A stretch of DNA of 64,000 nt from an uncultured Spirochaetota bacterium (GTDB lineage: Bacteria > Spirochaetota > Spirochaetia > SZUA-6 > Fen-1364), in contig CAWGAA010000001.1 of the NCBI GenBank assembly GCA_963820525.1, forward strand, positions 1,728,001 to 1,792,000, given 5' to 3'. A program made the position numbers and the translations under genes. Positions 19,980-43,086 of the stretch are shown here, piece by piece (positions within the stretch are counted from its first letter, which is position 1; every line of letters begins with the position of its first letter). The notes beneath the pieces were generated by a model. That model made no database searches and was not told the origin of the DNA. It was given only the letters and a program-made list of their open reading frames with translations.

Positions 19980-20013
19980 TCGGGCTTTTATTCACGTTTT
20001 TTATAAATTTTCA

Positions 20014-20042
20014 TTGACAGCAGACGCCTTCTATGGTAATTT
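20014..20042 (+). promoter_or_regulatory. sigma70 promoter of the nuoEFG-like/glutamate synthase operon
   Basis: TTGACA-17 nt-TAATTT with an AT-rich upstream tract. Confidence 0.65.
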
Positions 20043-20056
20043 GTCGAAAAATATTC

Positions 20057-20105
20057 ATGGCAATGGTTTGCCATAAAGAGTTGTTACCGGCTTGTCTTTG
20101 CCATA
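20057..20105. promoter_or_regulatory. Tandem putative NrpR operators
   Basis: ATGGCAATGGTTTGCCAT (perfect 7-bp arms) and GGCTTGTCTTTGCCAT, exactly 30 bp apart. Confidence 0.6.
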
Positions 20106-20159
20106 AGGGAGAGATTTTCGTCAAGTCGGGGCGTCCCGTCCGCCCGCCAGGAGGGATTC

Positions 20160-20657
20160 ATGGAAACGACCACAAAAGATTCCCTTGAGCAAATCCTCAC
20201 CCGTCACGGGCGGAAACGCACCCAGCTCATCGAAGTCCTTCACGACATCCAGAAAAGCTTCAGCTACCTTTCCGAGGATGCGCTCAAGACCGTATCCGAC
20301 AGCCTTGAAGTGCCTCTCATCGAAGTCTTCAGAGTGGCCAACTTCTACAAGGCCTTCAAGCTGAACCCCCAGGGCCGGCACCTTCTCACCCTCTGCATGG
20401 GCACTGCCTGCCACGTGAGGGGAGCGGACAAGCTCGCCGACGAGGTGAGCGGCCAGTTCGGCATCAAACCGGGGGAGACCACTCCCGACGGAGAGCTCAC
20501 CCTGGAGACCGTCAACTGCCTGGGGGCCTGCGCCCTGTCTCCCATCGCGATTCTCGACGGCAAATACTACGACAGGATGACCTACGCGAAGCTTCGCTCG
20601 CTGATCGAGAGGGTCACCGGAAACTCCCGCGAAAAGAAAAGCGTCACGTCAGGATGA
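20160..20657 (+). CDS. NuoE/HydC-like [2Fe-2S] subunit
   Basis: CMGTACHVRG...VNCLGACALSP. Confidence 0.92.
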   Translation: METTTKDSLEQILTRHGRKRTQLIEVLHDIQKSFSYLSEDALKTVSDSLEVPLIEVFRVANFYKAFKLNPQGRHLLTLCMGTACHVRGADKLADEVSGQFGIKPGETTPDGELTLETVNCLGACALSPIAILDGKYYDRMTYAKLRSLIERVTGNSREKKSVTSG

Positions 20658-22516
20658 AACCCATGGCAATAAAACCCACGACCGAGACCCTGAAGAGACT
20701 GGCCGATACCCGCCTGAAGGAGGACAGCGCCTACAGCCGGATCGCCATCGTGTGCGGCGGGCCCGGCTGCAGCGCCTCCGGCTGCCAGACCATCGTCGCA
20801 TGCCTCCAGCAGGAACTTGCCCGCAACGGGATCGGCAAGAAGATCAAGGTGAGGACCACGGGCTGCCACGGCTTCTGCGAGCAGGGACCCCTCATGGTGA
20901 TAGAACCCGAGAACCTCTTCTATTGCAGGCTCAAGCCGGAAGATATCCCCGAGATCGTCGCCGAGACCCTCGGCAAGGGCACGGTGATCGAGCGGCTCCT
21001 CTACACGGACCCCGCCACGGGCCGCAAGGTACAGAAGGAATCCGACGTTCCCTTCTACAAGGCCCAGGACAGGGCCTTGCTCGAGCAGAACAAGAATATC
21101 GATCCCTGCGAGATCGGGGACTATATCGCCCACGGCGGATACTCCGCGCTTTCCAAGGTCTTGACCACCCTGAAGCCCGAGGAGGTGATCGCCGAGATCA
21201 CGGCTTCGGGATTGCGGGGACGGGGAGGCGCTGGATTTCCCACGGGAAGGAAGTGGGAAACGTGCAGAAAGGCGGCGGGCTCGCCCAAGTACGTGATCTG
21301 CAACGCGGATGAGGGCGATCCGGGCGCCTTCATGGATCGCTGCATCCTCGAAGGCAATCCGCACGCCGTCATCGAGGGAATGCTCATCGGCGCATTCGCC
21401 ATCGGGGCGGAGCACGGCTACATTTACGTGAGGAACGAATACCCCGTCGCAGTGGATCACTCGAAGATCGCCATCACGCAGGCCGAAGAGATGGGCCTCC
21501 TGGGGAAAAACATCCTGGGGACCGGCTTTTCATTCGATATCACGGTGGCGCGCGGCGGTGGGGCATTCGTCTGCGGAGAGTCCACGGCCCTCATGGCCTC
21601 CCTGGAGGGGAAAGTGGGGGAGCCCCGGCCAAAGGACATTCACAGCACGGAAAAGGGCTTCATGGATCTGCCGTCCAATCTCAACAACGTGGAGACCTGG
21701 GCCAATGTTCCCTCGATCATCAATCGCGGTTCCGCCTGGTTCGCTTCGAAAGGCACCGCCCAGAGCACGGGGACCAAGATCTTTGCCCTCACGGGCAAGG
21801 TGAAGAACACGGGGCTCGTCGAAGTTGCCATGGGCACCACGCTGCGCCGTATCGTCACCGACATCGGCGGCGGCGCTCCCGACGGCAAGCGGGTGAAAGC
21901 GGTACAGATCGGGGGGCCATCCGGCGGCTGCCTGCCCGAGAGCCTGTTCGACCTTCCCGTCGACTTCGAGGCTCTGACGGCGCATGGGGCAATGGTCGGC
22001 TCCGGCGGCCTGGTGGTCATGGACGAAGGCACCTGCATGGTGAACGTGGCCCGCTACTTCCTGAAGTTCCTCCTGGAGGAGTCATGTGGCAAGTGCGTGC
22101 CGTGCCGCCTTGGAGTGAAGCGCCTCCACGAAACGGTGAGCGAGATTGCGGAGGGCCGGGGCACGGAGGGGATGCTGGAGCTCCTCGCCGACACGGCGGA
22201 GACGGTATCGGTGGCTTCCCTCTGCGCGCTGGGAAAGACTGCTCCCAACCCCCTCCTGACCACCTTGAAGTACTTCCGTGAGGAGTACGAGGCCCATATC
22301 AGCGACAAAAAGTGCCCCGCGGGGGTCTGCAGGGCCCTGATCCATTATTCAATCGACGATGCCGCCTGCAATGGATGCGGCCTGTGCTTCACGGCATGTC
22401 CGCACGGCGCCATCCAGCGGATCGACAAGAAGGTCTATCGCCTCGACGAGGCAAAATGCAGCAAGTGCGGCATCTGCCGGGACGCATGCAAGCACAGCGC
22501 CATCAGGGTCGCGTGA
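20654..22516 (+). CDS. NuoF/HydB-like FMN/NADH-binding subunit, long form with extra FeS domains
   Basis: N-terminal CGGPGC...GCHGFC; GRGGAGFPTG; NADEGDPGAFMDR; ESCGKCVPCR; H...CPAGVC; two C-terminal CxxCxxCxxxC motifs. Confidence 0.93.
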   Translation: MKPMAIKPTTETLKRLADTRLKEDSAYSRIAIVCGGPGCSASGCQTIVACLQQELARNGIGKKIKVRTTGCHGFCEQGPLMVIEPENLFYCRLKPEDIPEIVAETLGKGTVIERLLYTDPATGRKVQKESDVPFYKAQDRALLEQNKNIDPCEIGDYIAHGGYSALSKVLTTLKPEEVIAEITASGLRGRGGAGFPTGRKWETCRKAAGSPKYVICNADEGDPGAFMDRCILEGNPHAVIEGMLIGAFAIGAEHGYIYVRNEYPVAVDHSKIAITQAEEMGLLGKNILGTGFSFDITVARGGGAFVCGESTALMASLEGKVGEPRPKDIHSTEKGFMDLPSNLNNVETWANVPSIINRGSAWFASKGTAQSTGTKIFALTGKVKNTGLVEVAMGTTLRRIVTDIGGGAPDGKRVKAVQIGGPSGGCLPESLFDLPVDFEALTAHGAMVGSGGLVVMDEGTCMVNVARYFLKFLLEESCGKCVPCRLGVKRLHETVSEIAEGRGTEGMLELLADTAETVSVASLCALGKTAPNPLLTTLKYFREEYEAHISDKKCPAGVCRALIHYSIDDAACNGCGLCFTACPHGAIQRIDKKVYRLDEAKCSKCGICRDACKHSAIRVA

Positions 22517-22531
22517 CGAGGAGCGGAAGCG

Positions 22532-23230
22532 ATGAATGAAACGGTAACCTTGAGGATCGATGGCGCGCCCGTCAAGGCGGCCCAAGGAACCTCCGTTCTG
22601 GAAGCGGCCCTCGATTACGGGATCTGCATCCCCCACCTCTGTAACATCAAAGGGGTGAGCCCCGTGGGAGTGTGCAGGCTGTGCATCGTAGAGGTGGAAA
22701 AGAAAGGAAAGTCGAGAATCACCGCCTCCTGCACCCTGGAGGTGGAAGAGGGCATGGAGATCAAGGCCCACACCGAGAAGGTCAACCGCATCAGGAAGGG
22801 TGTCGCGGAGCTCCTGGTGGCTGAAGCGCCCAACTCGCGGGCCGTGCAGGACATCGCCGTGCTCTGCGGCGTCACCTCGGTGCGCTACCCGTTTCGAAAC
22901 GAGCAGTGCGTGCTGTGCGGCAGGTGCGTGAGGGTCTGCACGGAGGTATGGCGGGGCAACGCCTTGGGCCAGGTTGGCCGCGGGGAGCTGCAGCACATCG
23001 CCCTCCCCTTCGACAAGAGGCCGGATTCCTGCAAGCGGTGCAATGCCTGCATCACCGTCTGCCCGATGATGATCACCCCGTGCGACGGCCCGATGAAGAC
23101 GGGGCAGGAATACCTGTGCGGGAAGTGCGCTTCCCAATTGAGCATGAGCGCCCACGCTCCCGGCAGTTGCGTCCGCTGCAGGCTGGGAAAGGGATTCGAT
23201 TGCATCCGGCAGGTGCCGGTCATCTATTAA
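22532..23230 (+). CDS. NuoG/HydA N-terminal-like FeS protein without a catalytic domain
   Basis: IPHLC...GVCRLC...SC, CVLCGRCVRVC, CKRCNACITVCP, additional Cys-rich tail. Confidence 0.88.
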   Translation: MNETVTLRIDGAPVKAAQGTSVLEAALDYGICIPHLCNIKGVSPVGVCRLCIVEVEKKGKSRITASCTLEVEEGMEIKAHTEKVNRIRKGVAELLVAEAPNSRAVQDIAVLCGVTSVRYPFRNEQCVLCGRCVRVCTEVWRGNALGQVGRGELQHIALPFDKRPDSCKRCNACITVCPMMITPCDGPMKTGQEYLCGKCASQLSMSAHAPGSCVRCRLGKGFDCIRQVPVIY

Positions 23231-23276
23231 GGGGACATCCAGCGAGCCCACAGGGCGAGCTTCAAGGGGGGAATGA

Positions 23277-24866
23277 ATGAACCTGCAGAGACCCAATTCC
23301 AATGACGTGACCCAGACGGTCAATCGTTCCGAGAGCGTCGTGGCAAGCTCCGGCTTGTGCACGCGCTGCATCGACGGCTGCCGTGGAAACTGCGAAGTCT
23401 TCCGCTCCACCTTCAGGAGCCGCGAGGTCATCTACCCGGGGCCATTCGGCGAAATCACCGCCGGGGGAGACAAGAACTACCCCATCGACTATTCCCACCT
23501 CAACATCATGGGCTACGCCATGGGCGCCAAGGGGCTTCCGCAGGGCGTCGAGCCGGGCCCCGACACGGCAATCTTTCCCGCGGTCAATACCGAGACCGAG
23601 TACGGGTGGAGCTCCAAGGTGAAGATGAGGGCGCCCGTGTTCACCGGCGCGCTCGGGTCCACCGAGATCGCGCGGAGGAACTGGGAGCATTTCGCAATCG
23701 GCGCGGCCATCTCGGGAATCACCCTGGTGTGCGGCGAGAACGTGTGCGGAATCGATCCCCAGCTCGAGCTGGACTCCAAGGGAAAGATCGCCAAGTCCCC
23801 CGATATGGACAGGCGCATCGAGACGTACAAGCGCTTCCACGACGGCTACGGAGAGCTCCTCGTACAGATGAACGTCGAGGATACCCGCCTCGGCGTGGCG
23901 GAGTACGTGAGGAAGAGGCACGACCTGAAGACCATCGAGCTGAAGTGGGGCCAGGGCGCCAAGTGCATCGGCGGAGAGATCAAGGTGAAGAGCCTGGAGC
24001 GCGCCCTGGAGCTGAAGAAGCGCGGCTACATCATCACCCCGGACCCCACCTTGGAGGCGGTTCAGGCCGCGTACAAGGACGGGGCCATCCGCGAGTTCGA
24101 GCGCCACTCCCGCCTGGGTTTCGTGACCGAAGACGGATTTTTCAAGGAGATCGAGAGGCTGCGCAAGCTCGGCTTCGAGCGCATCACCCTGAAGACCGGC
24201 GCCTACTCAATGAGGGAGCTCGCCATGGCCATCAAGTATTCCTCCATGGCGCATATCGACCTTCTGACCATCGACGGGGCGGCAGGGGGAACAGGCATGA
24301 GCCCCTGGCGGATGATGGAGGAGTGGGGAATCCCCACCTTCTACCTGGAGTCGCTCACCTATGAGTTCGCAGAAAAGCTCGTAAAGAGGGGAATGCGCCT
24401 GCCGGACCTTGCCATCGCGGGGGGCTTCTCCACCGAGGACCACCTGTTCAAGGCGCTTGCCATGGGCGCCCCGCACATCAAGGCCGTCTGCATGGGCCGC
24501 GCCATGATGATCCCCGGAATGGTGGGCAAGAACATCGACCTCTGGATTAAGGGCAACGACCTTCCCACAACCGTGTCGCGCTTCGGCAAGACCCCCAACG
24601 AGATCTTCGTGTGCTTCGACGAGCTGGCCGATAAGTACGGAAAACAGATGAAGGACATCCCGCTTGGTGCCGTGGGCATCTACAGCTTCTCCCAGAAGCT
24701 CAAGATCGGGCTCCAGCAGCTCATGGCGGGCACCAGGAACTTCAGGCTCTCGACCATCTCCCGCAAGGACCTGATGTGCCTCACCGAGGACGCTTCGAAA
24801 GTTTCGGGCATCCCCTACCTCATGCAGGCGTACCGGGAAGAGGCGGAGGCGGTGCTTCAGAGCTGA
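23277..24866 (+). CDS. Stand-alone FMN-binding glutamate synthase family protein
   Basis: IELKWGQGAKCIGGE, TIDGAAGGTGMSP, AGGF...KALAMGA; N-terminal CTRCIDGCRGNC; no amidotransferase domain. Confidence 0.9.
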   Translation: MNLQRPNSNDVTQTVNRSESVVASSGLCTRCIDGCRGNCEVFRSTFRSREVIYPGPFGEITAGGDKNYPIDYSHLNIMGYAMGAKGLPQGVEPGPDTAIFPAVNTETEYGWSSKVKMRAPVFTGALGSTEIARRNWEHFAIGAAISGITLVCGENVCGIDPQLELDSKGKIAKSPDMDRRIETYKRFHDGYGELLVQMNVEDTRLGVAEYVRKRHDLKTIELKWGQGAKCIGGEIKVKSLERALELKKRGYIITPDPTLEAVQAAYKDGAIREFERHSRLGFVTEDGFFKEIERLRKLGFERITLKTGAYSMRELAMAIKYSSMAHIDLLTIDGAAGGTGMSPWRMMEEWGIPTFYLESLTYEFAEKLVKRGMRLPDLAIAGGFSTEDHLFKALAMGAPHIKAVCMGRAMMIPGMVGKNIDLWIKGNDLPTTVSRFGKTPNEIFVCFDELADKYGKQMKDIPLGAVGIYSFSQKLKIGLQQLMAGTRNFRLSTISRKDLMCLTEDASKVSGIPYLMQAYREEAEAVLQS

Positions 24867-25013: not shown

Positions 25014-27917
25014 CTACCGCCCGGCGTCCTTCGGCGCGAGATCGTTTCCGATGCCGAGATAAACCGGCTTGAATCCCCCTCCGTAATCCAGCTGCGTCGT
25101 CCACACCTGGACCGTGCCGGCGGCCTGCCAGACCCGGCCCTTCTGCGACTTGGCGGTCAAGAGGTAGCCAACGGTCGCTCCTTCGGGCAGGTTCATGGAT
25201 TGGCCGAAGCCCAGCGCGTTGCCCCTCGGCGCCCCAGGCTTTGTCCAGACCATATCGCTGCCGAGAGGCTTCCCCGCGGATGCGTCAATGACGCTCACCG
25301 CTATTCCATATTCTCCCGCGGAATTCTTCTCGAAGTCCTCGCGGTCGGCAGCGCGTTCCTTTCCCGCCGCCCGCGATATATAGCCTGCCACCTTCACGAG
25401 CGTGCCGACCTTGGGCCAGATCGCCCGGGGGCTGCTGCCGAAAAGCAGGAAGGGAACATTCAGCCCCACAATGCCGCCTGAAGGCATCGCCTCGGCATAA
25501 TAGAGGTAATTGCCGCCGCTGGTTGGGACGGCAACTTCAACCTCGACGAGGCGGTTTCTGTCCAGTGTTACCCCCGCCGAGCTGTATTCGATGCTCACGG
25601 CCTGATTTCGGCCCAGGGAACGCACCTGTACGGGAACGGATCCCTGCGCCACGATTTCATCGCTGCGGTAATAGCGCACCGTCACGCGAGCCTGGTCGCC
25701 GATCCGCTCCTTGTTCAATGCAAGGGCATCCGCTTCACGCTTCTCGAGGCGCAGGTTTCTGGCCATCACTGAGATGCGGTCGTTTCCCGTCGGCTGCGCC
25801 GGCTGGGGCGTGACGGGCATCGGCTGAGGTCTGAGGGGCTGTGGCTGCTCTTCTCGGGAAACACGGAGGGTATATCTGGCCGTGCTTCCATTCTCCGCGG
25901 TTACGTCAATGGCGACAACCCGGGTGGCACCCGGATCCACGGCAACGGTTCGACCTGTCTTCTCCAGGGGCGAGCCGTCGACCGTGATGGCTGCCTTCGG
26001 GCTCTGAGCTGATGCCATAAGGAGCACGGAAGGCACGCCGGCGCCGATCTTGGCATCGTAGATGATGATGCCGGGGGAGAAAACGGGCTGGAGCGCAACG
26101 CCGGCGAGCTGGAGCGTATTCAGCATGGTGTTGCCGTCCTTGCCGACCTGAGGCACGACGGGGGCGGGATTAGCGGGCTCTACCGGCTGGGGAGTCACTG
26201 CGGGCTGAACCGGAGACACATCTCGGCTCACCGTCACCTGGTAAAGCCGCTGCGAGCCATCCTCCGCAGTCACCACGAGGCTGACGATGGCGCTCTTGCC
26301 GGGGTCAACAGCCACTGTGACGGTCTTGCTGGAAGCTGGGGCCGCGCCCTGCTCTCCCGCGAGGGAGATGACAGCCCGCGGGCTTGCCGTCATCGTCGTG
26401 AGCTGGACGTTCGTAACGCCCGAGGACAGCGCCAGGCTGTACGATACGACACGGGGAGAAAACGGCGGGAACAGCGCTCCGGCTGAAACGGCCAGGGAGG
26501 CAAGGTCGGCATTGCGGTCAGGGGGCGCCCTCCTGATGACGAGGGAGTAGCGGAAGACATTCCCGTCCTGCGCGGTCACGGTGACCGACATGGGCAGCAG
26601 GTTTCCCTTCTCGAAATCCAGCAGCACTCCCGCCGGGTCCGCCGGGCTTCCCTGATATGAGAAGCCCACGGCGGCCGCGCCAGCCGCGGAGGCCGGCATC
26701 TCCAGGGCTACGCGCGCATACGCGCTTCGCGGCTGGGCATGCACCGTGAGCTGCTTGGTCGCGAAAGGCACGCTTGCGTCGAAGGAGGCGATATTGGGGC
26801 CGAATGTTGGAGAGAGCACGCCCCCGTCCACCGAAAGTACGGCCAGCTGGTAATCGTGATCGGGCTCCGCGCGCACGATTTCAACCGCGTATTGCTGCGC
26901 GCTTCCATCCTGCGCGGTAACCGTCACGATAAAGGGGAAACGCGCGCCGCTGGCGAAATCGAGGACGGCGCCGTTTTTATCCGAGACATTCCCGCGGAAC
27001 GCTCCGACGGCCCCACCGCCCTCCTGGGAGGCCGTCTGCCCGGGCACGCCGATGGCAAGAACGGCATACGGGCTCTGCGGACGGGCGCGGACCACCAGCT
27101 GCCGTGTTTCGAAAGGCACAGAGACCACGTAGGTGAAGCGGGAAGGCGTGAACAGGGGCGCAAGAGATGCGCCCTGTATGTCAAGTGCGTCCAGGGCGGC
27201 GTTGGAATCCGGCGCGGCCCGGGAAAGGAGAAAAGTATATTTCTGGCGCGTGACTCCATCCTCGGCCAGCGTCTCGATCACGATCGTTTCCTTCTGCCCC
27301 GTGGCGAAGTCCACGCTCGCGCTTGCCGCGGCGCCCTGATACTCGACGCCGGCAATGGAAATGCTTTTCACGGTGCGGCTCTGAGCCCGGGCTTCGATGT
27401 GCAGAGTTCGAGTGGCGAAGGGGACCTGGATGGCATAGCGAGTCACCGCCGGGCTGAAAGCGGGCTGGATCACCGCCCCGGAAGGCAGGGAGATCTGCGC
27501 AAGCCCGGCGGAGGCCTCGGCTTCCCGGACGACCACCCGGTAGCGCCATGGCTCCTTCTGGCCCGAGACCTCGATCGAGTACATCACGGGAGCCGAGAAA
27601 TCGTTGGCAGTGACGCCGTTCTGCTGGAGCACGCGCGTTCCGCTGGAAACAACGGAAATGACAGCCTCCGTGCTCAGGGAGAGCGTGGCGATCAACGTCG
27701 ACCTGTCGGTGCCGGGCGGAACGACGAGCTCGACGTCCCTCGGGTCCGCCAGCTCGTTTATCGTCCCCTGCACGTTCTGCGTCAGCCCGGGATTCGACGC
27801 CGAAAGCAGGAGAAACGAATCCACGGGGCCCTTGCCGCGCCCCGCGAATGTGACGCAGCCGCCGAGACCCGCGAGCATGAGCAAGGCAAACACGGCACGG
27901 CAGGCGAGCTTTCGCAT
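25014..27917 (-). CDS. Large lipoprotein with tandem cadherin-like beta-sandwich repeats
   Basis: Lipobox-like LGGC; about five repeats of NA.L..L.V....L.P.F.P....Y...V...VTAEDG...Y; Pro/Gln linkers. Confidence 0.85.
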   Translation of the reverse strand: MRKLACRAVFALLMLAGLGGCVTFAGRGKGPVDSFLLLSASNPGLTQNVQGTINELADPRDVELVVPPGTDRSTLIATLSLSTEAVISVVSSGTRVLQQNGVTANDFSAPVMYSIEVSGQKEPWRYRVVVREAEASAGLAQISLPSGAVIQPAFSPAVTRYAIQVPFATRTLHIEARAQSRTVKSISIAGVEYQGAAASASVDFATGQKETIVIETLAEDGVTRQKYTFLLSRAAPDSNAALDALDIQGASLAPLFTPSRFTYVVSVPFETRQLVVRARPQSPYAVLAIGVPGQTASQEGGGAVGAFRGNVSDKNGAVLDFASGARFPFIVTVTAQDGSAQQYAVEIVRAEPDHDYQLAVLSVDGGVLSPTFGPNIASFDASVPFATKQLTVHAQPRSAYARVALEMPASAAGAAAVGFSYQGSPADPAGVLLDFEKGNLLPMSVTVTAQDGNVFRYSLVIRRAPPDRNADLASLAVSAGALFPPFSPRVVSYSLALSSGVTNVQLTTMTASPRAVISLAGEQGAAPASSKTVTVAVDPGKSAIVSLVVTAEDGSQRLYQVTVSRDVSPVQPAVTPQPVEPANPAPVVPQVGKDGNTMLNTLQLAGVALQPVFSPGIIIYDAKIGAGVPSVLLMASAQSPKAAITVDGSPLEKTGRTVAVDPGATRVVAIDVTAENGSTARYTLRVSREEQPQPLRPQPMPVTPQPAQPTGNDRISVMARNLRLEKREADALALNKERIGDQARVTVRYYRSDEIVAQGSVPVQVRSLGRNQAVSIEYSSAGVTLDRNRLVEVEVAVPTSGGNYLYYAEAMPSGGIVGLNVPFLLFGSSPRAIWPKVGTLVKVAGYISRAAGKERAADREDFEKNSAGEYGIAVSVIDASAGKPLGSDMVWTKPGAPRGNALGFGQSMNLPEGATVGYLLTAKSQKGRVWQAAGTVQVWTTQLDYGGGFKPVYLGIGNDLAPKDAGR

Positions 27918-28151
27918 GAAGACCTCCACTCTCAGATCTCGAATATAGTCCTTAGACGCCGGCAAAACCGGCATGTCGGAGCATACCGAAGAGGCACGGA
28001 TTGTATTTCGATATCATCCGGGCGGTATACTAACCCAAGGGGTTCACCATGCAATATACGATCATGCCCTCTGTGAAGGCCATCAAGAAGGCTCAGGGCG
28101 GCAACGTCGACATCATCGTCGGACCGTCCGCGGGGGAAGCCGCCCGCCGGC

Positions 28152-29006
28152 TCAGCCGATGTCTGCCTGCCGGGCGCGTTCCTTCATCAACCTGCTGAAA
28201 GTGACGCGGGGTACCGGCTCCCGCGGCCGGGCCTTGAGGGTGATCTTCTCTCCCGTGGCGGGATTGACTCCCACGCGCGCCTTCTGCGCGGGACGCATGC
28301 GCAGGAACAGCCTGCCCAGCTTGCCCAGGGGAACCCGCTGGCCCAGGAGCATCCCCGACTCGATCATCGTAAGATAGTCGTCGACGATCCGCCTGGTCTG
28401 CTTCTGGCTCAAGCCGTTCTTCCGCGCGAGGTAGGTGATGATGGTTTTCATGGTGAACTGGTCCGGCACTTCCTGTCCGGCCGGAACCACCGTGCGGTTG
28501 ATCTTCAAGAACCCATTGGTGAGGTAGATGGTGGCTTCCCGGATCCGTTTCTCCTGCTCTTCCGGCGGCACGTCGGGAGCGCAGGCGGCGATCTTCAGGA
28601 GAGCGGAGGTATTCTGGAGCTGTCCCCCACGGAAGGCCGCCTCCTGATCCTGGACGGCATCCGCCTCGAGCTCCGCGCTCTCCATCACGATCAGGTGCGG
28701 CACATCGGTTCGAAGCTGGATGCTTGCGTACTCGACCCGCCGCCCCCCCTTCTCCAGGGGCCCCAGGCTGACGAGGGATCCGGAATAGGTCAGCATCAGC
28801 GCACCCCTCTTGTCGGCGGCATCGAATGACTCCAGCTCCACCATGTCCAGGGCGCGGATCTGGCCTTCGAACATCTGCTTCTTCTCGAACCAGACCCGAG
28901 CCATGTCCTCCAGGGTCTGCGGCGTGTCGGGAAGCCCCGAGCTCTTGATCAGGCCGGCCAGATGGGAGCGGATCGTCTCGTTCAGCTTTCCAGCGTAATC
29001 TGACAT
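28152..29006 (-). CDS. Unknown ~175-aa domain fused to a C-terminal HU/IHF DNA-binding domain
   Basis: C-terminal LARKNGLSQKQ...VPLGKLGRL...RPAQKARVGVNPATGEKITLKARP; RBS AAGGAGGT before MSDY. Confidence 0.85.
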   Translation of the reverse strand: MSDYAGKLNETIRSHLAGLIKSSGLPDTPQTLEDMARVWFEKKQMFEGQIRALDMVELESFDAADKRGALMLTYSGSLVSLGPLEKGGRRVEYASIQLRTDVPHLIVMESAELEADAVQDQEAAFRGGQLQNTSALLKIAACAPDVPPEEQEKRIREATIYLTNGFLKINRTVVPAGQEVPDQFTMKTIITYLARKNGLSQKQTRRIVDDYLTMIESGMLLGQRVPLGKLGRLFLRMRPAQKARVGVNPATGEKITLKARPREPVPRVTFSRLMKERARQADIG

Positions 29007-29144
29007 TCCCACCTCCTTTTCTTCCATGGTAATACGAATTGACTCGGCCCGCAATTGAATGATTCGACGGTGTTGGGTATATTGCTTTGCGCGGGCTATA
29101 TTATATGTCGGTGTACGTTTTTCCATGCAACGAAGGAGGACAAA

Positions 29145-29675
29145 ATGGGAGAGCACTTGGATCAAATTCCGGCGCAAATCCAGAGCCACATCCGTCAGAT
29201 CACCAAGACATCCGGCCTGCCGGACACAGAGGATTCGGTTGAAATGATCGCCCAGGGCTGGCTCGAAAAAAAGGGCCTGTTCGAGAAGCAGGTGGCCGGC
29301 ATGAGCCTTGAGCAGATCGACATCCTCGAGAAGACCGACCAGCGCGGCTGCCTCGCAATGACATATTCCGGCTCCCTCCTGAACATCGGCCCCATGCGCG
29401 AGAATGGAAGGACCGTCCAGTACGTGAGCATCGGCTTGCGGCAGGACGTGCCCGAAACCGCCAACAAGGAAGGATCGGCCCTCGGCCAGGACGTGCGCGT
29501 CGGCGCGCCCGTTTCCTTCTCCACGGGTCCCATTCAGAGCTCTTCCCCCGTATTCGCCATCGCGGTCACGAGCGAGGACCTGGACCTGGAGGAGCAGGAG
29601 CGCCAGATTTCCAAGGCCACCCAGATCCTGACCCGCGAGTTCGTGGAGGTCAACAAAGAGCTGGACGCCGAGTAA
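29145..29675 (+). CDS. Hypothetical protein, stand-alone paralogue of the N-terminal domain of the HU fusion
   Basis: RBS AAGGAGG; shares SGLPDT, W.EKK..FE.Q, D.RG.L..TYSGSL...GP, Y.SI.LR.DVP and EEQE..I..AT..LT..F with 28152..29006. Confidence 0.85.
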   Translation: MGEHLDQIPAQIQSHIRQITKTSGLPDTEDSVEMIAQGWLEKKGLFEKQVAGMSLEQIDILEKTDQRGCLAMTYSGSLLNIGPMRENGRTVQYVSIGLRQDVPETANKEGSALGQDVRVGAPVSFSTGPIQSSSPVFAIAVTSEDLDLEEQERQISKATQILTREFVEVNKELDAE

Positions 29676-30698
29676 GTGACGCTCGAAGAGAGGCTGTGGG
29701 AGATCTTCCGCCGTGAAGGTCCTCCCGAAACGGAACCCTATCAGGAGTCCCTGCTGGAAACATTGGAGGTCATGGCCGCCGAACCGGGCAGCGTGCGGCC
29801 GCCCGACTCCAACGGCATTCCCGGCGGGCTGGTGATGCTTGCCCGCGACCTTCCCACGATCATCGTGCCCGACCTCCATGCGCGGATGGATTTCTTCCTG
29901 AGCGTGATGGGCTACGAGGCGGAGCCGGGCAGGAAAGCCCTCGAGCTCATGGACGCCGGACTCCTCCAGATCGTGTGCCTGGGAGACGGCGTCCACGCGG
30001 AGGGGCGCGCCGCGCGGCGCTGGAAGGCGGCCCTGCAGGAGTTCCAGGACGGTTTCGAGCGCCACCAGAGCATGGACGAGGAGATGCGGGAGAGCCTGGG
30101 AGTGATGGGCATGGTGATGGAAGTGAAGAGAGCCTGTCCAACGCGCTTTCATTTCCTCAAGGGCAACCACGAGAACATCTCCAATGAGATGGGCGGCGGC
30201 AACTTCCCCTTCCGCAAGTTCGCCCTGGAAGGCCTGATGGTCCTGACCTACATGCGCCAGTTCTACGGCGATGAGCTGTTGGGCGCATACTCGCGCTTCG
30301 AGAAGGATCTGCCGCTCCTCGCTTCCGGGCGGGGATTCCTCATCTCGCATGCCGAGCCGGCGGCCTTCTTTCCCCGCTCCCAGCTCATCGACTACCGCTC
30401 ATACCCCGATGTGGTTTCCGGGCTGACATGGACGGACAACGACGAAGCGGACGAGGGAAGCGTGCAGCAGATGCTGGACCACTACCTGGGCCCCCAGGAG
30501 GGGGAGAGAGGCTTCTACTTCGCCGGGCACCGTCCCGCTGCGGGGGGATACCGGCTGCGGGCCGACGGCAGATTCGTGCAGATCCACGACCCGGATCGCT
30601 TCGTCATCGCCCACCTTCCGGCGTCGGGGGATATCGACCTCGGCCGGGATATCAGGGAGATCGACGATACGTCCGTCATGGCGGAGGAGTATGGATAA
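29676..30698 (+). CDS. Calcineurin-like metallophosphoesterase
   Basis: PDLHA, LGDGVH, KGNHE, SHA and GHR motifs in the expected order. Confidence 0.85.
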   Translation: MTLEERLWEIFRREGPPETEPYQESLLETLEVMAAEPGSVRPPDSNGIPGGLVMLARDLPTIIVPDLHARMDFFLSVMGYEAEPGRKALELMDAGLLQIVCLGDGVHAEGRAARRWKAALQEFQDGFERHQSMDEEMRESLGVMGMVMEVKRACPTRFHFLKGNHENISNEMGGGNFPFRKFALEGLMVLTYMRQFYGDELLGAYSRFEKDLPLLASGRGFLISHAEPAAFFPRSQLIDYRSYPDVVSGLTWTDNDEADEGSVQQMLDHYLGPQEGERGFYFAGHRPAAGGYRLRADGRFVQIHDPDRFVIAHLPASGDIDLGRDIREIDDTSVMAEEYG

Positions 30699-32577
30699 CA
30701 GACAGACCAAGAAGATCGGCAAGTACGAGCTCATCGCAAAAGTAGCCCAGGGAGGGATGGGCGCCCTGTACAAGGCGAAGCATCCCACCCTGGGCAGGGT
30801 CGTGCTCTTGAAGAAGCTCGCCCTGCGGGGAGGCAGCCAGTTCGTGGAGCGCTTCAAGAGGGAAGCCCGCATCATGATGGATTTCAAGAACGATCACATC
30901 GTCCAGGTCTACGACCACTTCAAGGAAGGCCTCCACTACTTCATCGTGGAAGAGTACGTGGACGGCATCTCGTTGGACGCGCTGATCAGGAAGGAGCGCT
31001 ACCTCACGAACGAGGCGGCCATGCTGATCCTCTACGAGGTATGCAAGGCCCTGAAGTACGCCCATGACAAGCAGGTGATCCACCGCGACATAAAGCCGGG
31101 CAACATCCTCATCTCCAAGGAAGGGGAGGTGAAGCTGGTGGACTTCGGGATCGCCACCTCCCTGGAAGAAACGGACGACGGTCTGACGCGCGACGGAATG
31201 ATGCTGGGCACTCCCGCCTACGTCCCGCCCGAGCAGATCGACAACGCCAAGAACGTGGACAGGCGCGCTGACATCTACTCCCTCGGAGTGGTGATCTACG
31301 AGATGCTCACGGGCAAGACCCCGTTCCCCGGTTCCTTCACGGCGGAGACGATCAACCTGATCCACAAGGGCAGGTACGTGCCGCCGCAGCGCCTCAATCG
31401 CAAGATCGCCCCCCTCATGGCCCGCATCGTGCGCAAGTGCATGCGGGTAAGGCCGAAACGGCGCTTCCAGGACCTGCATGAGATCATCCGGCTGCTGGAA
31501 AAGCGCATCAAGCGCAAGGATCCCGTCTCCATCAAGCACGCCATAAGAAACGTGCTCGCTGATAAAGACATCAGGGACATCTTCAAGAGGAGGAGCTCCT
31601 GGCCGGGGCGCATCATTGCCGCCGTTGTCCTTCTGGCGGCCCTTGCAGCGGGCGGCTACTACCTGTACCAGCAGGGCGCCGTCTTCGAGTACCTTGCCCC
31701 GGATCGCTACGGCGCGCTTATCATCTCCGCCCAGGTTGCCTCCTCCTACAAGGACCCCGGGGAGATCTACTTCAAGCCGGTGCTCTACAGGGAGAACGGA
31801 AACGACATCACGCGCCTGGACGGAATAGATTTCGGCCTGCACGAAAACACGGCCAAGCGCGCGGGCCAGAGCTTCGTCCTGGAAACCAGGCGCATCTACC
31901 TCGAGGCGGGAAGGTACAGGCTGAAAGTCGGCCTGGAAGGCCAGCTGTACTGGAGCTCGTTCACCCTGTCCCCGCGCCTGGTTCAGAGGCAGCTCCTGGC
32001 CACCGTGGACGGCATGCGCATCGACCTGCGTCAGGGAAGCGGCGCGCCGCAGCCGCTCCAGGTGATGGAATCGGTGAGCGACGCGTACACGGGGGAGGAC
32101 CTTTCGTATTCGGCGGATATCAACCTCTGGATCAATGACCGCTTCGTTCCCGGGGGCCTCGCGGGCAGGGACAAGCTCTTCTCGGGGGCGACCTACCGGT
32201 TCGTCGTATCCATGCAGGGCTACTATCCCCAGACCTACAACCTGATTGTGAAACCCTACCAGACCGTCGTGAATCTCCAGGCGAGCCTCGTGCCTCACCC
32301 GGGAACCCTGGTCCTGCGCTCCTCCACCGACGGCGTGAGCCTTCAGCTGAACGGCTCCGACTTCTACTCGACGGGCGGAATGAAACCAGAGTACAAGAAG
32401 CTCGAGCCCCTCGGCGTGGAGAACCGGCGGCTCGCGGTGCAGCCGGGACAATACACGATGACGGCCAGGAGGTTCGCATCCTCCCGGACGCTCACATTCC
32501 ACGTGGATCCCGACGCCTCCCTCGAGATCGACTTCTCATTGGACAATGGGAGCCTGAACGCCATGGTGAAACCATAG
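30691..32577 (+). CDS. Membrane-anchored Hanks-type Ser/Thr protein kinase with beta-rich extracytoplasmic region
   Basis: QGGMG, HRDIKPGN, DFG, GTPAYVPPEQ, DIYSLG; single TM helix after the kinase domain. Confidence 0.95.
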   Translation: MDNRQTKKIGKYELIAKVAQGGMGALYKAKHPTLGRVVLLKKLALRGGSQFVERFKREARIMMDFKNDHIVQVYDHFKEGLHYFIVEEYVDGISLDALIRKERYLTNEAAMLILYEVCKALKYAHDKQVIHRDIKPGNILISKEGEVKLVDFGIATSLEETDDGLTRDGMMLGTPAYVPPEQIDNAKNVDRRADIYSLGVVIYEMLTGKTPFPGSFTAETINLIHKGRYVPPQRLNRKIAPLMARIVRKCMRVRPKRRFQDLHEIIRLLEKRIKRKDPVSIKHAIRNVLADKDIRDIFKRRSSWPGRIIAAVVLLAALAAGGYYLYQQGAVFEYLAPDRYGALIISAQVASSYKDPGEIYFKPVLYRENGNDITRLDGIDFGLHENTAKRAGQSFVLETRRIYLEAGRYRLKVGLEGQLYWSSFTLSPRLVQRQLLATVDGMRIDLRQGSGAPQPLQVMESVSDAYTGEDLSYSADINLWINDRFVPGGLAGRDKLFSGATYRFVVSMQGYYPQTYNLIVKPYQTVVNLQASLVPHPGTLVLRSSTDGVSLQLNGSDFYSTGGMKPEYKKLEPLGVENRRLAVQPGQYTMTARRFASSRTLTFHVDPDASLEIDFSLDNGSLNAMVKP

Positions 32578-32580
32578 GGG

Positions 32581-33477
32581 GTGCTCATGACTACGCTCAT
32601 TCGAAGACTGATTATCCTTGCCCTGGGAGTGCTCGCCGGTATCGCCGTCTGGCCGGCGGCCGAGCTCATTCTTTTCCTCCAGAGCGGCTTCCCCTCCTAC
32701 CTCGCCTTCCTCGCGGTCCTGGGCGCGGTCGTCGGCGCCCTCATGGGGGCTTTCTTCGGCGTGGCCGAGGGGATCACCTCGAGGATAAGGCTGAGAATTC
32801 CAAACGGCATGGCCCTCGGCGCCGCGGTTGGACTGGTGGGAGGGGCCCTGGGAGCCCTCGTCGGCCAGGCCGCGCTGTGGCTGATCGGCGGCCTGGTCCT
32901 CCGGTCCTACGCCAACTTCCAATGGGTGGTGCTCCCCGTCTCCCGGGCGATCGGGTGGGCGGTGCTGGGCATCTTCGTCGGGGCGGGGGAAGGTGTACGC
33001 GCTTCCTCACCGAAGAAGATCACGGTGGGAGTCATTGGAGGGCTCCTGGGCGGAATCGTGGGGGGTTTTGCCCTGGAGTACTCGCGCCTGCTTCTGCCCC
33101 ACACCTTCTTTTCGAGGCTCATCGGGCTTCTGATCCTGGGTTGTGCCATCGCTTTCTTCTACGCCCTGATCGAGCAGGGCATGTCGTTCGGCGTCGTTCG
33201 CATCCTCACCGGGGAGCTCAAGGGAAAGGAGTTCCTCATCAACCAGGGCAGGATGCGCATCGGCCGCTCGCGGCGGGCCGAGATCGCCCTGCCGACCTAC
33301 GAAGACCTGGCGGACACCCAGGCCGAGCTTCGAATCAGGAAGGGGGATCTGTACCTGGCCAACCTCGAGCCGAGGCTCCCCATGCTCGTCAATGAGAAAA
33401 AAACAGAGGAGCAGAAGCTGAAGCTCGGGGACGTGATCAAGATCGGCTCCGCCAAGATCTTCTACAAATACGAGTGA
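32581..33477 (+). CDS. Gly-rich polytopic membrane protein with C-terminal FHA-like domain
   Basis: About six GxxxG-rich helices; GKEFLI...IGRS...VNE...LKLGDVIKIG. Confidence 0.85.
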   Translation: MLMTTLIRRLIILALGVLAGIAVWPAAELILFLQSGFPSYLAFLAVLGAVVGALMGAFFGVAEGITSRIRLRIPNGMALGAAVGLVGGALGALVGQAALWLIGGLVLRSYANFQWVVLPVSRAIGWAVLGIFVGAGEGVRASSPKKITVGVIGGLLGGIVGGFALEYSRLLLPHTFFSRLIGLLILGCAIAFFYALIEQGMSFGVVRILTGELKGKEFLINQGRMRIGRSRRAEIALPTYEDLADTQAELRIRKGDLYLANLEPRLPMLVNEKKTEEQKLKLGDVIKIGSAKIFYKYE

Positions 33478-33488
33478 GGGAGAAACCC

Positions 33489-34910
33489 ATGCGCATGACA
33501 CGCTTTTTGATACCGCTCGCTCTTGTGGCGAGCTCCGCTTTCGCAATCAATGTGAGCCTGGCGCAGATCGACGCCTCGGGCCTTCTTCTCACGCAGAACG
33601 TGAACGCGTACATCAGCGTCACCGACGACCAGGGGCTCCCCGTGGAGGGATTGTCCCGTGAGGCGTTCGCCGTTATGGAATCGTCGGACGGGCAGAGCTT
33701 CCAGAGAATCGACAGGATTACCGGCTTCAAGCCGGCCGCCGGCTCCAGCGAGGGCATAACATTCATGCTCCTCATCGACAACTCGGGAAGCATGTACGAT
33801 ACGCTGGATGGAAAGCCCACAACGGATCCCGCCCAGATGCGCATCACCCTGGTCAAGGAGGCGGTCCGCACCTTCCTCTCCAGCATGACGAGCCCCCGGG
33901 ACAGGGTCGGGCTCGTCGCTTTCAACACCTTCTATACGAAGGTATCGGGGCCCATCGCGGATCGGGCGCACATCGCACGCCTCCTGGACGAGATCAAGAG
34001 GCCCACCCCCGACCAGGCCTACACCGAGCTGTACGCCGGCCTCTCCCTGGCCGCGCGTGATTTCGCGGGAGTGGGCGGGCGCAAGGCCATCATCGTCCTC
34101 ACGGACGGCGAGAACTACCCCTACGCCCAGTACTCGGGAAAACCACACCCGGTTTTCGGATCCCGGATAGCCGAGTACGGCGAGCCCATCCAGGCGAGCC
34201 AGGAGGAGGGCGTCACCATCTACGGCATCAATTTCGCCAAGGCGAACGACAAGAACATGCGCGCCATAACCCTCGAGACCGGCGGACAGATGTTCGACGC
34301 CAAGAACGGCGAGGAGCTGGCCGGGGTCTACCGGACCATCCACCAGCGGGTGGCGGGCGAGTACCTCCTCACCTACCGCGCCCTCACCACCCCCGCGGAG
34401 AAGAAATACGTCCGGGTGGACGTCAGCGCGCAAGGCGCCGAGCAGTCCGCCACGCGCTTCTACTTCGCCAGCACCGTTTTCGGGCTTCCGCTGAGCAGGC
34501 TCACTTTCCTGCTCCTGATTCCCTTCATTCTCGCCTTCCTCCTGGTATGGGTCCTCACTCTCCTGAAGCTGGAGAGGGGGCTCGGGCCCGCCAACCTCGA
34601 GGTGATCCAGACGCAGGTCGGTTTCCCGTCGGCCAAGACGATCCCCCTGGGAAGCGCCAAGACGGTGATCGGAGGGGGCAAGAGCGCGGACCTCACCATC
34701 GTGGGGGCTCCCCAGGTGAAGGAGCAGCACGCCACGATCCTCTTCGACCCCAAGGACAAAAGCTATACGGTCGTGGGCGGAGGGGATATCACGGTGAACA
34801 ACCAGCCCGTGAAGACGAGGAAGCTCGAGCCCGGAGACGTCATTGACGTGGGCGGCGCCACGATCGTGTTCGACGAGGGGAAGGAAGAGGAGAAAAAAAA
34901 GAAGGGGTAG
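33489..34910 (+). CDS. Signal peptide-vWA-TM-FHA-like protein
   Basis: MIDAS DNSGS...T...TDGE; TM helix; VIGGG...QHA...VNN...LEPGDVIDVG. Confidence 0.88.
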   Translation: MRMTRFLIPLALVASSAFAINVSLAQIDASGLLLTQNVNAYISVTDDQGLPVEGLSREAFAVMESSDGQSFQRIDRITGFKPAAGSSEGITFMLLIDNSGSMYDTLDGKPTTDPAQMRITLVKEAVRTFLSSMTSPRDRVGLVAFNTFYTKVSGPIADRAHIARLLDEIKRPTPDQAYTELYAGLSLAARDFAGVGGRKAIIVLTDGENYPYAQYSGKPHPVFGSRIAEYGEPIQASQEEGVTIYGINFAKANDKNMRAITLETGGQMFDAKNGEELAGVYRTIHQRVAGEYLLTYRALTTPAEKKYVRVDVSAQGAEQSATRFYFASTVFGLPLSRLTFLLLIPFILAFLLVWVLTLLKLERGLGPANLEVIQTQVGFPSAKTIPLGSAKTVIGGGKSADLTIVGAPQVKEQHATILFDPKDKSYTVVGGGDITVNNQPVKTRKLEPGDVIDVGGATIVFDEGKEEEKKKKG

Positions 34911-35874
34911 GCAGCCGCACGCGGGCGAGGTACACGCTCGCCCTGCCCTCATGCGAGGAGTAGTAACTCACCCAGAGAAGCCCTCCGTGCCAGGCGAGCC
35001 CGGGATAGCTGCAGTCGCCTTCGCTTGGAAGCTCCAGCACGGGTCGATACTCCCGCGGTCCAATGGCCGCGATGACGGTGCGATACCCATCCCCCGTGTA
35101 AGCCCTGCCGGCGGCCCATATGCTCCCATCCGGCAGCACGATGAAGTTGGGCCCGCCGATCCGCTGGCCGGCCGGATGCCACTTCCATTTCGCATACGGC
35201 GGCGGGCTCGTCCCGATCCAGGCCTGCCTGTCTCCGCCCTCCCGGCGGACAAGAGCCATGGCGCTGCCGTCGGACAGGAAGCGGAGAGTGGTCTCGTTTG
35301 GCTTCCCGGGCACGGCCAGGCGGCACACCTCCCGGTAGTCGACCCCGTCGCCGCTTGAGACGAGGGTGATGTCCCATCTCTCTGCGTTTCTTATGGTGTA
35401 GGAGACCCCGTACGCCCTGCCCTGGTGCCACGTCACCCTCCAGAGCCAGTCGCCGTCCGCCAGGATCGCGAGAGGCCTGCTCCATCGGCGGTCCTTGCCC
35501 TGAAACGAGACGCGAGGCCTGCGTCCGGGGGATCCGCACTCCCCCCGCGCTGTGCCGCCCATCAGAAGCATGAGTCGTCCGTCTGGAGTTGTGCAAAGCT
35601 TCGGGTCGCGCAGGTCCACACCCTGCTCCGCGATGATGGCCGCCGGCTTCCATGATCGGCCGTCGGCGGACTCGATGATGCGGACCCTGCCGTCGCCCTC
35701 CACGTGAGAGGAGGCTTCCCGAAATGCGCAGTACCACTTCCCCCGCAGGCGGATGAGGTCCGTGAAGGCGCTGTGCTCCGCGCGGTCCCAGATCTTCTCA
35801 AGCGATAGGATCCTGGCGGCGCCCGTGGTCCCCTGCCGCGCTTTTCCTGAAGCGTTGCGGGCGGCGCCGCTCAT
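34840..35874 (-). CDS. Sialidase-like (Asp-box) beta-propeller protein
   Basis: HSAFTDL, SADGRSW, DLRDPKL, SGDGVDY, GDCSYPG, YYSSHEG. Confidence 0.75.
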   Translation of the reverse strand: MSGAARNASGKARQGTTGAARILSLEKIWDRAEHSAFTDLIRLRGKWYCAFREASSHVEGDGRVRIIESADGRSWKPAAIIAEQGVDLRDPKLCTTPDGRLMLLMGGTARGECGSPGRRPRVSFQGKDRRWSRPLAILADGDWLWRVTWHQGRAYGVSYTIRNAERWDITLVSSGDGVDYREVCRLAVPGKPNETTLRFLSDGSAMALVRREGGDRQAWIGTSPPPYAKWKWHPAGQRIGGPNFIVLPDGSIWAAGRAYTGDGYRTVIAAIGPREYRPVLELPSEGDCSYPGLAWHGGLLWVSYYSSHEGRASVYLARVRLPTPSFFSPLPSPRRTRSWRRPRQ

Positions 35875-40111: not shown

Positions 40112-40480
40112 TTATTTCAGATGCTGCAGCGAGAGCTCCGTGCGGCCGATGAGGACGATGTCCGAGTGGTTGATCCGCATGTACTTCCAGGGGGGAACCG
40201 ACTGTCCATTGAGGAATGTTCCGTTTGTGCTGCCGAGGTCCTGGATGAAGTACTCCTCCTTCACCTTCTGAATGATCGCGTGCTGGCGGGAGGCGAGGAT
40301 ATCTTCCAGAACGATCGAGTTGTCCTCTCCCCGGCCTATCGAGGTCCTGCTCACGATGGGGAGGCGCTTTCCCTGGAAAACAATGTACATCGTCCCCGGC
40401 TTGTGTACCTTTGAGAGGCGTTTGCCGACCGTGCTCTCGTAGTGAATCGTCCTGTTTGGATCATCCGTCTCGATCGACAT
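40112..40480 (-). CDS. Small stand-alone FHA protein
   Basis: Canonical IGR, SRQHA and DLGSTNGT; RBS GAGGAGG. Confidence 0.9.
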   Translation of the reverse strand: MSIETDDPNRTIHYESTVGKRLSKVHKPGTMYIVFQGKRLPIVSRTSIGRGEDNSIVLEDILASRQHAIIQKVKEEYFIQDLGSTNGTFLNGQSVPPWKYMRINHSDIVLIGRTELSLQHLK

Positions 40481-42891: not shown

Positions 42892-43086
42892 GACCCATCC
42901 TCCAAAGCCGGAGCTAACGCTAGAGTCGCGTAGGCCAGACGCGATGTCAAGCAAAGGGGTTTTTCACAGGCCGCCGTGCGGCGGCATGAAATCTCACCGC
43001 GGTCGCCCGGCGCGGCGGCTATCGGGGACCCCCGCTGCGCGCCGGCGACTATCGGGAGGCCTCCGCCGCGGCGGCGCGGCGGCGCT

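Follow-up and report, generated by a model that had tools for sequence, protein, structure and literature searches.

What does a compact gene cluster do when it sets a Ser/Thr kinase, a phosphoesterase and two membrane proteins with FHA folds beside a DNA-binding protein of the HU type? The cluster in question lies at 28152-34910 of a 64,000-nucleotide (nt) stretch of DNA (the window, whose numbering is used throughout) from an uncultured Spirochaetota bacterium, whose genome assembly (the window genome) comprises 5.05 Mb and is 96.7% complete. The initial annotation took its six genes for a complete circuit of writer, eraser and scaffold whose output is a nucleoid protein. On balance we lean towards a broader answer: a chromosomal envelope-sensing Ser/Thr phosphorylation pathway of Spirochaetota, composed of a membrane receptor complex, an adaptor of uncatalogued fold (X), a stand-alone FHA protein as reader and substrate, an optional output in which X is fused to HU (X-HU), and an eraser resembling the PPP phosphatases.

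Five genes on the forward strand follow one another closely. The first (29145-29675) encodes stand-alone X, a protein of 176 amino acids (aa) with an acidic isoelectric point (pI) of 4.6 and an uncatalogued alpha/beta fold; it directly abuts (0 nt) the gene for a calcineurin-like metallophosphoesterase (29676-30698), probably a Ser/Thr phosphatase of PPP type, which in turn overlaps by 8 nt the gene for a PknB/StkP-like membrane Hanks kinase (30691-32577; 628 aa). After a gap of 3 or 9 nt follows TM-FHA (32587-33477, with an alternative GTG start at 32581), a Gly-rich polytopic membrane protein of 296 aa with a C-terminal degenerate FHA fold, and then, with a 4-nt overlap or an 11-nt gap depending on the start chosen, vWA-TM-FHA (33489-34910, alternative GTG start 33474), whose 473 aa comprise a predicted signal peptide, a vWA domain with an intact metal-ion-dependent adhesion site (MIDAS), one transmembrane segment and a second degenerate FHA fold. 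On the reverse strand, across a divergent intergenic region of 138 nt (29007-29144), the X-HU gene (28152-29006) encodes 284 aa, with an X domain at 1-176 and an HU/IHF domain of pI 11.3 at about 180-280. All coordinates, gaps, the divergent spacer and the domain calls of the initial annotation proved correct, including the tight coupling of the five genes by overlaps or gaps of 0-11 nt. The GC content at third codon positions is 0.83-0.87 across these five genes. Pfam identified HU (PF00216) at 185-277 of X-HU, Pkinase, VWA, and FHA/YscD on both membrane proteins, and assigned no family to X or to the window copy of the phosphoesterase. The spacer holds one sigma-70-like site (29055-29083, forward strand), no more than chance over the region scanned (1 found, 1.2 expected), and a terminator scan found 7 where 4.6 were expected. 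An open reading frame (ORF) at 28152-30350 was rejected as a separate gene, being the X-HU frame extended upstream; the X-HU start was taken at 29006.

How firmly these genes belong together was read from a survey of 401 Spirochaetota genomes, the one phylum searched genome by genome, and from 48 loci, which consist of 8 from a search for close relatives and 40 chosen regions around X matches and are not a random or independent sample. Close relatives came from uncultured Spirochaetota, and X was matched, patchily, in 55 of the 401 genomes. The transmembrane domain of TM-FHA was likewise matched in 55 genomes; five of these matches were weak (E 1.5e-8 to 1e-3), came without X and were dropped, leaving 50 genomes that we refer to as module genomes. 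X was present in all 50, and the transmembrane domain in 50 of the 55 genomes with X, the other five being three from one family, one with a marginal match and one that is 82% complete. X and the kinase occurred together in 39 of the 48 loci, and these operon loci contained TM-FHA in every case, the vWA gene in 37 (one of the others is cut by a contig end) and the phosphoesterase in 33, invariably in the order X, phosphoesterase, kinase, TM-FHA, vWA. Inside 24 of these 39 loci X-HU was present, placed in one of four ways: divergent (18), downstream and tail-to-tail (4), downstream and co-directional (1) or upstream and co-directional (1). It stood alone in five further loci; its retention near the operon through rearrangement argues for a functional link. 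The gene linkage is far beyond chance and is conserved across many Spirochaetota families. The proposal of a kinase, phosphoesterase, FHA-fold and vWA unit that is conserved, undescribed, led by X and linked to X-HU is therefore borne out. In three genomes whose loci lack the phosphoesterase (93-94% complete) a search did not find it, while it was found in both controls. Both the phosphoesterase and X-HU are dispensable in some near-complete genomes, and the core of the system is X, the kinase, TM-FHA and vWA-TM-FHA. Kinase or vWA genes look split in some loci (L001:11549-13456, L054:7763-9671, L050:5118-6598), probably through long-read or assembly frameshifts, and two genomes of family f44 have extra stand-alone X copies that lie apart from the head of the operon (L062:5127-5675, L061:7159-7695). 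A TM-FHA homologue of 49% identity (P0203) is labelled as coming from a Deltaproteobacteria metagenome-assembled genome, which may reflect transfer, mis-binning or a wider range. Among RNA runs no holder was listed.

The predicted writer retains the catalytic motifs with which it was first annotated: K41, E58, H131-R132-D133, N138 and D151-F152-G153 are invariant in 21 of 21 aligned sequences, and so is Thr166 of the activation loop. Hydropathy predicts a single transmembrane segment at 302-327, followed by a divergent, poorly conserved C-terminal ectodomain, and the 14 PDB matches that reach E 1e-60 or better all belong to bacterial Ser/Thr kinases, for the most part named StkP or PknB. These features place the protein, as far as its sequence tells, among the Hanks-type membrane Ser/Thr kinases of PknB/StkP kind. 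It appears to stand outside the PASTA kinases (the Stk1/PknB equivalog): Pfam detected no PASTA domain on it, and NF033483 scored 269 against a cut-off of 450, through the kinase domain only.

For the predicted eraser, the initial annotation had proposed a metallophosphoesterase instead of PP2C. Calcineurin-like enzymes carry the metal-ligand motifs DxH, GD, GNH, H and GH, and the corresponding residues D66, H68, G103, D104, G163, N164, H165, H225, G284 and H285 are invariant in 30 of 30 homologues, 24 of which match Pfam Metallophos, in agreement with that proposal. A profile search of the PDB with E up to 1 gave 47 matches, every one a PPP-family phosphatase or an entry listed beside them (PP1, BSU1, PP5; one named FAP15). 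A PPP-like Ser/Thr phosphatase is thus the best reading of this gene, short of proof. A second, distant homologue (23% identity) lies unlinked at G000:C3:427640-428680 of the window genome.

Phosphothreonine-binding FHA domains are defined by GR, SxxH and NG motifs (PMC3162421). The FHA folds of both membrane proteins and the intact MIDAS had been recognized correctly in the initial annotation, which missed that the folds are degenerate. In TM-FHA the Arg is kept in 2 of 30 sequences, the Ser in 6 and the His in 26; in vWA-TM-FHA the counts are 0, 0 and 17 of 27, and in neither fold is NG among the three commonest residues at its columns. The window copy of TM-FHA keeps GR but lacks the Ser, the His and NG. 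Both folds fall short of a canonical phosphothreonine-binding domain, and the loss of the binding residues suggests that they are probably scaffolds rather than phospho-readers; it also leaves no canonical reader among the six genes. In contrast to this decay of the FHA folds, the vWA residues D-S-S, T and D of the MIDAS are present in 27 of 27 sequences. Hydropathy of vWA-TM-FHA indicates a signal-like segment at 6-25 and a transmembrane segment at about 329-365, from which the vWA domain is predicted to face outwards and the FHA fold inwards, and TM-FHA has about six hydrophobic segments and many invariant glycines.

A candidate reader lies 5.2 kilobases (kb) from the vWA gene and was overlooked initially. 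The reverse-strand gene at 40112-40480 encodes a stand-alone FHA protein of 122 aa in which GR, SxxH and NG are all present (Pfam FHA, E 2.7e-21), preceded by a short N-terminal arm with a Thr; on these motifs it would be a canonical phosphothreonine-binding FHA protein. In 14 of the 48 loci a canonical stand-alone FHA gene adjoins X or X-HU; nine of these genes are of the window type (38-56% identical), four of a second type, and one has a helix-turn-helix-like tail. Matches to the window FHA protein at E 1e-12 occurred in 40 of the 50 module genomes and lay within 600 nt of an X match in 16 of those 40. All nine locus copies of the window type begin with M-x-D-[DE]-T-I; the window copy has R-T-I. 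From these relatives we infer that 40112-40480 is a probable displaced seventh member of the window's system, and the stand-alone FHA protein is the likely reader and substrate of the pathway. Its PDB matches include GarA and ArnA (5a8i, 8s05_C), and those of the vWA domain include ArnB (8s05_A); the 8s05 chains, labelled only 'Conserved protein' in the PDB, are presumably ArnB and ArnA. Two further canonical stand-alone FHA genes of the window genome (G000 C1:1430119-1430475 and C1:2350445-2350830) carry K-T-L in a short N-terminal arm, and the first is 57-60% identical to the window FHA protein.

What, then, is X? It shares 37% identity over 171 aa with the N-terminus of X-HU (E 2e-42), has no family in Pfam, NCBIfam or PADLOC, and as a profile found 0 matches in a sequence search of the PDB. 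The family comprises about 157 clusters at 50% identity, with 591 proteins among 3478 candidates; none of the 120 X proteins listed has a Pfam domain, nearly all go by the name hypothetical protein, and the four that carry an organism label come from spirochaetes. X falls into three classes, namely stand-alone X, X-HU and X fused to another helical domain of no catalogued family, and the window genome carries all three. Residues W39, K42, F46, T73, S75, G76, S77, R89, Y93, S95, R99, P103 and S134 are common to all classes. One 701-aa protein, P0061 (5 contigs, 4 sources), is the vWA-transmembrane protein of the system, in which X and the third-class domain stand in place of the FHA fold. This puts an X domain at the vWA protein's cytoplasmic side, and the fusion ties X, by sequence, to the membrane complex. 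A search for long X fusions scored none among 7998 candidates although P0061 exists, so that this search was insensitive. A 3183-aa protein (P0113) was set aside as an X homologue, having matched over only 63 residues, in repeats. The third X gene of the window genome (G000:C3:30041-30946; L041:8042-8947) encodes X plus a helical C-terminal domain, with no Pfam match on its relative P0060; a proline-rich OmpA-domain gene and a YARHG gene lie divergently to it, and no kinase is nearby. On a 1.3-kb contig, P0022 fuses X to DUF2442 (Pfam E 6e-11).

Put together, the pathway may work as follows. The kinase, vWA-TM-FHA and the polytopic TM-FHA would form a receptor complex in the inner membrane, in which the periplasmic, metal-binding vWA domain and the kinase ectodomain would sense a ligand or the state of the envelope and trigger kinase autophosphorylation, as the intact catalytic and MIDAS residues would permit. 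The cytoplasmic FHA folds, given the observed loss of binding residues, could serve as phospho-independent docking surfaces or as substrates, and X, judging by its invariant co-occurrence and the vWA-TM-X fusion, would be the soluble adaptor of the complex. The signal would leave by at least two routes: the stand-alone FHA protein might be phosphorylated on its N-terminal Thr in the manner of GarA and OdhI, and X-HU might bring an X domain onto DNA and thereby alter local nucleoid structure or transcription. The PPP-like enzyme would reset the system and could be lost. A more specific proposal sees in X a new adaptor fold for signalling: its invariant Arg/Lys/Ser/Tyr cluster would read a phosphosite in place of the degenerate membrane FHA folds, and X would move back and forth between the receptor complex in the membrane and the paralogue fused to HU, in a dedicated envelope-to-nucleoid relay with interchangeable outputs (HU, the second helical domain, DUF2442); we entertain this tentatively and regard it as possible, on the doubtful side.

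Several observations weigh against the envelope-sensing pathway as we have drawn it. Elsewhere the window genome encodes another Hanks kinase and two further canonical FHA proteins, and the stand-alone FHA protein is neither exclusive to the system (36 of the 77 genomes that have it are without X) nor matched at E 1e-12 in 10 of the 50 module genomes. The P0061 fusion is a single protein cluster and bears the third X class rather than the operon X. As to the eraser, the PPP matches are weak (best E 0.009) and extend over about 30 residues, and its second motif reads GDGxHxExR where PPP enzymes have GDxVDRG (GDxxD). Finally, X-HU is sited outside the operon in several other genomes and was not found in any of five module genomes of 90-96% completeness, which had been picked for showing a single X match.

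These absences also count against a narrower model, in which the six genes form a closed circuit, X-HU is the main kinase substrate and output, and the pathway exists to remodel the nucleoid. That X-HU could act on DNA is plausible from its sequence: its HU domain is basic and scores 47.7 bits with PF00216 against a cut-off of 22.4, and the N-P-x-T-G arm is kept (N in 32, P in 35, T in 39 and G in 38 of 43 sequences), by which it would belong with the DNA-intercalating HU/IHF (DNABII) proteins, from which it differs in bearing a 176-aa N-terminal X domain. The NCBIfam HU/IHF models score far below cut-off on it, and a term search of the main text of a survey of the HU superfamily (PMC5499826) gave no X-HU-like fusion. 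Phosphorylation of HU by Hanks kinases has precedent, and Myxococcus xanthus HU-alpha loses DNA binding upon phosphorylation by Pkn2 (PMC6213207). The narrower model further draws on the position of X-HU beside the operon in the 24 loci and on a tree of 61 X sequences, in which X-HU (27 rows, support 100/100) and the third class (12 rows) each occupy one side of a branch, a support inflated by about 20 residues that run past X and are shared by X-HU only; rows of X and X-HU with P identifiers were left out of this tree. However, the six genes contain no canonical phospho-reader, and the absence of X-HU from some near-complete genomes implies that HU is only one output. The original claim of a complete six-gene circuit ending in a nucleoid protein is thus not supported in that form, the phosphatase too not having been found in three genomes, and we regard the narrower model as unlikely. 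Stand-alone HU genes may be noted here: one in the window genome (G000:C1:3071731-3072087) is 47% identical to the HU domain of X-HU and a possible heterodimer partner, and two loci whose X-HU gene is sited elsewhere have a similar gene at 2.5-3.5 kb from the operon (L069:1531-1908; L073:15331-15708).

Might the pathway instead sense a threat? In a conflict system like Esr, vWA-MoxR or TerY-P, the vWA domain and the kinase ectodomain would detect an attacker and evoke a transcriptional defence response. Esr, a sensor of epibionts, is built of the same part classes (vWA, Ser/Thr kinase, phosphatase and FHA output; PMC13622651), and the poorly conserved kinase ectodomain, the DUF2442 fusion and the patchy range of X would all suit such a role. 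The genomic context speaks against it. No gene beyond the system recurred across the 48 loci outside close kin, the flanks being unconserved housekeeping genes, and neither MoxR, a beta-propeller nor an effector gene recurred in the loci; MoxR and beta-propeller genes were also missing from the Pfam matches (E 1e-15) of 119 flanking ORFs from 33 loci. These ORFs gave 11 PADLOC matches, mostly to generic domains (ATPase, methyltransferase, helix-turn-helix, ankyrin), and by Pfam they encode metabolic, transport and regulatory proteins, besides a single transposase and a single Fic protein. When the eight proteins were run through PADLOC 2.0, the kinase alone matched, via its kinase domain, and the other seven hit 0 families, which would place the system outside the catalogued anti-phage systems. 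Furthermore, X had no match in 72,556 plasmids, 50,697 phages or 9 viral candidates, and 48 of the 50 module genomes have a single match to the TM-FHA transmembrane domain. Altogether the system reads as an inherited chromosomal pathway with patchy loss. Since Esr is itself chromosomal, these points weaken threat sensing rather than exclude it, and we hold it to be quite unlikely.

The degenerate FHA folds could also be parts of a structure. On this account a ring or patch of FHA folds, as in the secretion-machine proteins MxiG/YscD and EssC, would serve secretion, division or motility, and the kinase would only regulate its assembly. Both folds score better or equally well with Pfam Yop-YscD_cpl and lack the binding residues, in likeness to the N-terminal domain of MxiG, which does not bind phosphothreonine (PMC3162421), and the polytopic protein is rich in invariant glycines. 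Yet the loci show no recurring gene for an ATPase, a channel, a substrate, flagella or division, and X-HU and the canonical FHA protein would be left unexplained, which makes a structural assembly very unlikely as the system's purpose.

The structural model of X leaves room for one further idea. X was predicted with a pLDDT (predicted local distance difference test) of 93.5 as a beta core preceded by two helices at the N-terminus and followed by a long one at the C-terminus, and its core alone with 92.2. The core aligned best with NucS's N-terminal domain (2vld_B; Z 6.1, root-mean-square deviation 3.8, 81 residues aligned, 9% identity), ahead of a next match at Z 4.5, and several Sm/Lsm chains matched at Z 3.2-3.9; the NucS match is a lead only, for Z 6.1 was within reach of unrelated folds in this search. 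Foldseek found no match for full X in the PDB at E 0.001, VIA fold searches gave at best Z 4.9 (wide; helix-dominated) and Z 3.3 (second look), and the best ESM Atlas values, 0.86 for X and 0.82 for the transmembrane domain of TM-FHA, are likewise leads only; judged by its model, X has no clear solved fold. A PH-like reading of the core (NucS, DM10 domains) was not confirmed in the one paper found. That X binds nucleic acid or a nucleotide through a NucS-like or Sm-like barrel, so that X and X-HU would detect DNA that is damaged or single-stranded and pass the signal outwards to the kinase, could draw on the Sm/OB-like, single-strand-binding nature of the NucS domain (PMC4929162), on the W, Y, K, two R and several S/T that X keeps, and on a Deinococcus vWA/kinase/FHA/PP2C operon linked to DNA damage (bioRxiv 2026.01.23.701218), but is highly improbable against that search background and the acidity of X.

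The neighbours at 25014-27974 and 34840-35874 were matched in 0 of the 48 loci and hence are not parts of the system; the former, directly downstream of X-HU on the reverse strand, encodes a probable lipoprotein of 986 aa with five cadherin-like beta-sandwich repeats. A methyl-accepting chemotaxis gene at 40778-42954 (reverse strand) shows up as two overlapping ORFs, one with the Cache part (41812-42954) and one with the signalling part (40778-41884), probably through a frameshift or assembly error. At 18972-24866 (forward strand) lies an ordinary nitrogen assimilation cluster, in which genes for Fe-S/flavin oxidoreductase subunits and a glutamate synthase-like gene (23277-24866) come after an NrpR-type regulator; the glutamate synthase-like gene was rejected as a hint of a GarA-type link, as it does not recur in the loci.

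The envelope-sensing pathway suggests, without proving, a new signalling route from envelope to chromosome. To our knowledge, Ser/Thr signalling in spirochaetes has been little studied, and of the only two Hanks kinases that the window genome has, one belongs to this module. It contributes an uncatalogued domain with a confident model and defined invariant residues, it unites pseudo-FHA scaffolds and a true FHA reader in one pathway, and the natural X-HU fusion makes the action of an envelope kinase on the nucleoid through a dedicated adaptor directly testable. The parts are small or standard enough for reconstitution in vitro.

How does the cluster compare with known systems? The literature searched, which left most subscription papers outside, held no description of it, in line with the initial view that this is not a named system. 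Closest in parts is the Sulfolobus Arn network (ArnA FHA, ArnB vWA, kinase ArnC, phosphatase PP2A; PMC7472852), which has the same four part classes and a PPP-type rather than a PP2C eraser. In the spirochaetes, by contrast, the vWA domain is predicted to be exported, with the membrane between it and a degenerate FHA fold, the genes make up a single operon, and a polytopic scaffold, X and an HU fusion are present; moreover, ArnA and ArnB form a direct heterodimer, which the predicted spirochaete topology would not allow the vWA domain to do. The Deinococcus radiodurans operon DRA0331-DRA0334 (bioRxiv 10.64898/2026.01.23.701218) also unites a vWA protein, a Ser/Thr kinase, an FHA protein and a phosphatase; it differs in a PP2C with a KI-FHA domain and a canonical FHA, and its abstract names no X-like, TM-FHA or HU component. 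Esr shares surface sensing by vWA, kinase and phosphatase and an FHA-containing output protein that is phosphorylated on Thr with a transcriptional result, but is confined, according to PMC13622651, to Actinomycetes and has a MoxR protein, a beta-propeller/Ig sensor, a transglutaminase and an Esx link, none of which recurs in the spirochaete loci; with no MoxR AAA+ or beta-propeller partner there, the cluster would not belong to the vWA-MoxR/Esr systems. The TerY-P triad (vWA, PP2C, kinase-zinc ribbon; PMC11090510) similarly joins vWA, kinase and phosphatase in one gene unit, whereas the spirochaete cluster has neither PP2C nor a kinase fused to a zinc ribbon or OB fold, its kinase and vWA proteins are predicted membrane proteins, and it lacks a restriction-system context, which would set it apart from that group too. 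With the PknB/PknG-GarA/OdhI pathway (PMC8546545) it shares a PknB-like kinase domain and a small FHA protein whose short N-terminal arm contains a Thr. GarA and OdhI are phosphorylated on an N-terminal Thr within an ETTS motif before the FHA domain (PMC8546545), while the spirochaete arm reads D-[DE]-T-I (R-T-I in the window) without ETTS and the kinase is without PASTA; the stand-alone FHA protein would thus not count as a GarA/OdhI homologue by motif, and we keep the analogy for how it may work. The general kind of kinase/phosphatase/FHA/vWA signalling is therefore known, and what is new is the X domain family together with this arrangement of kinase, phosphatase, FHA and vWA genes.

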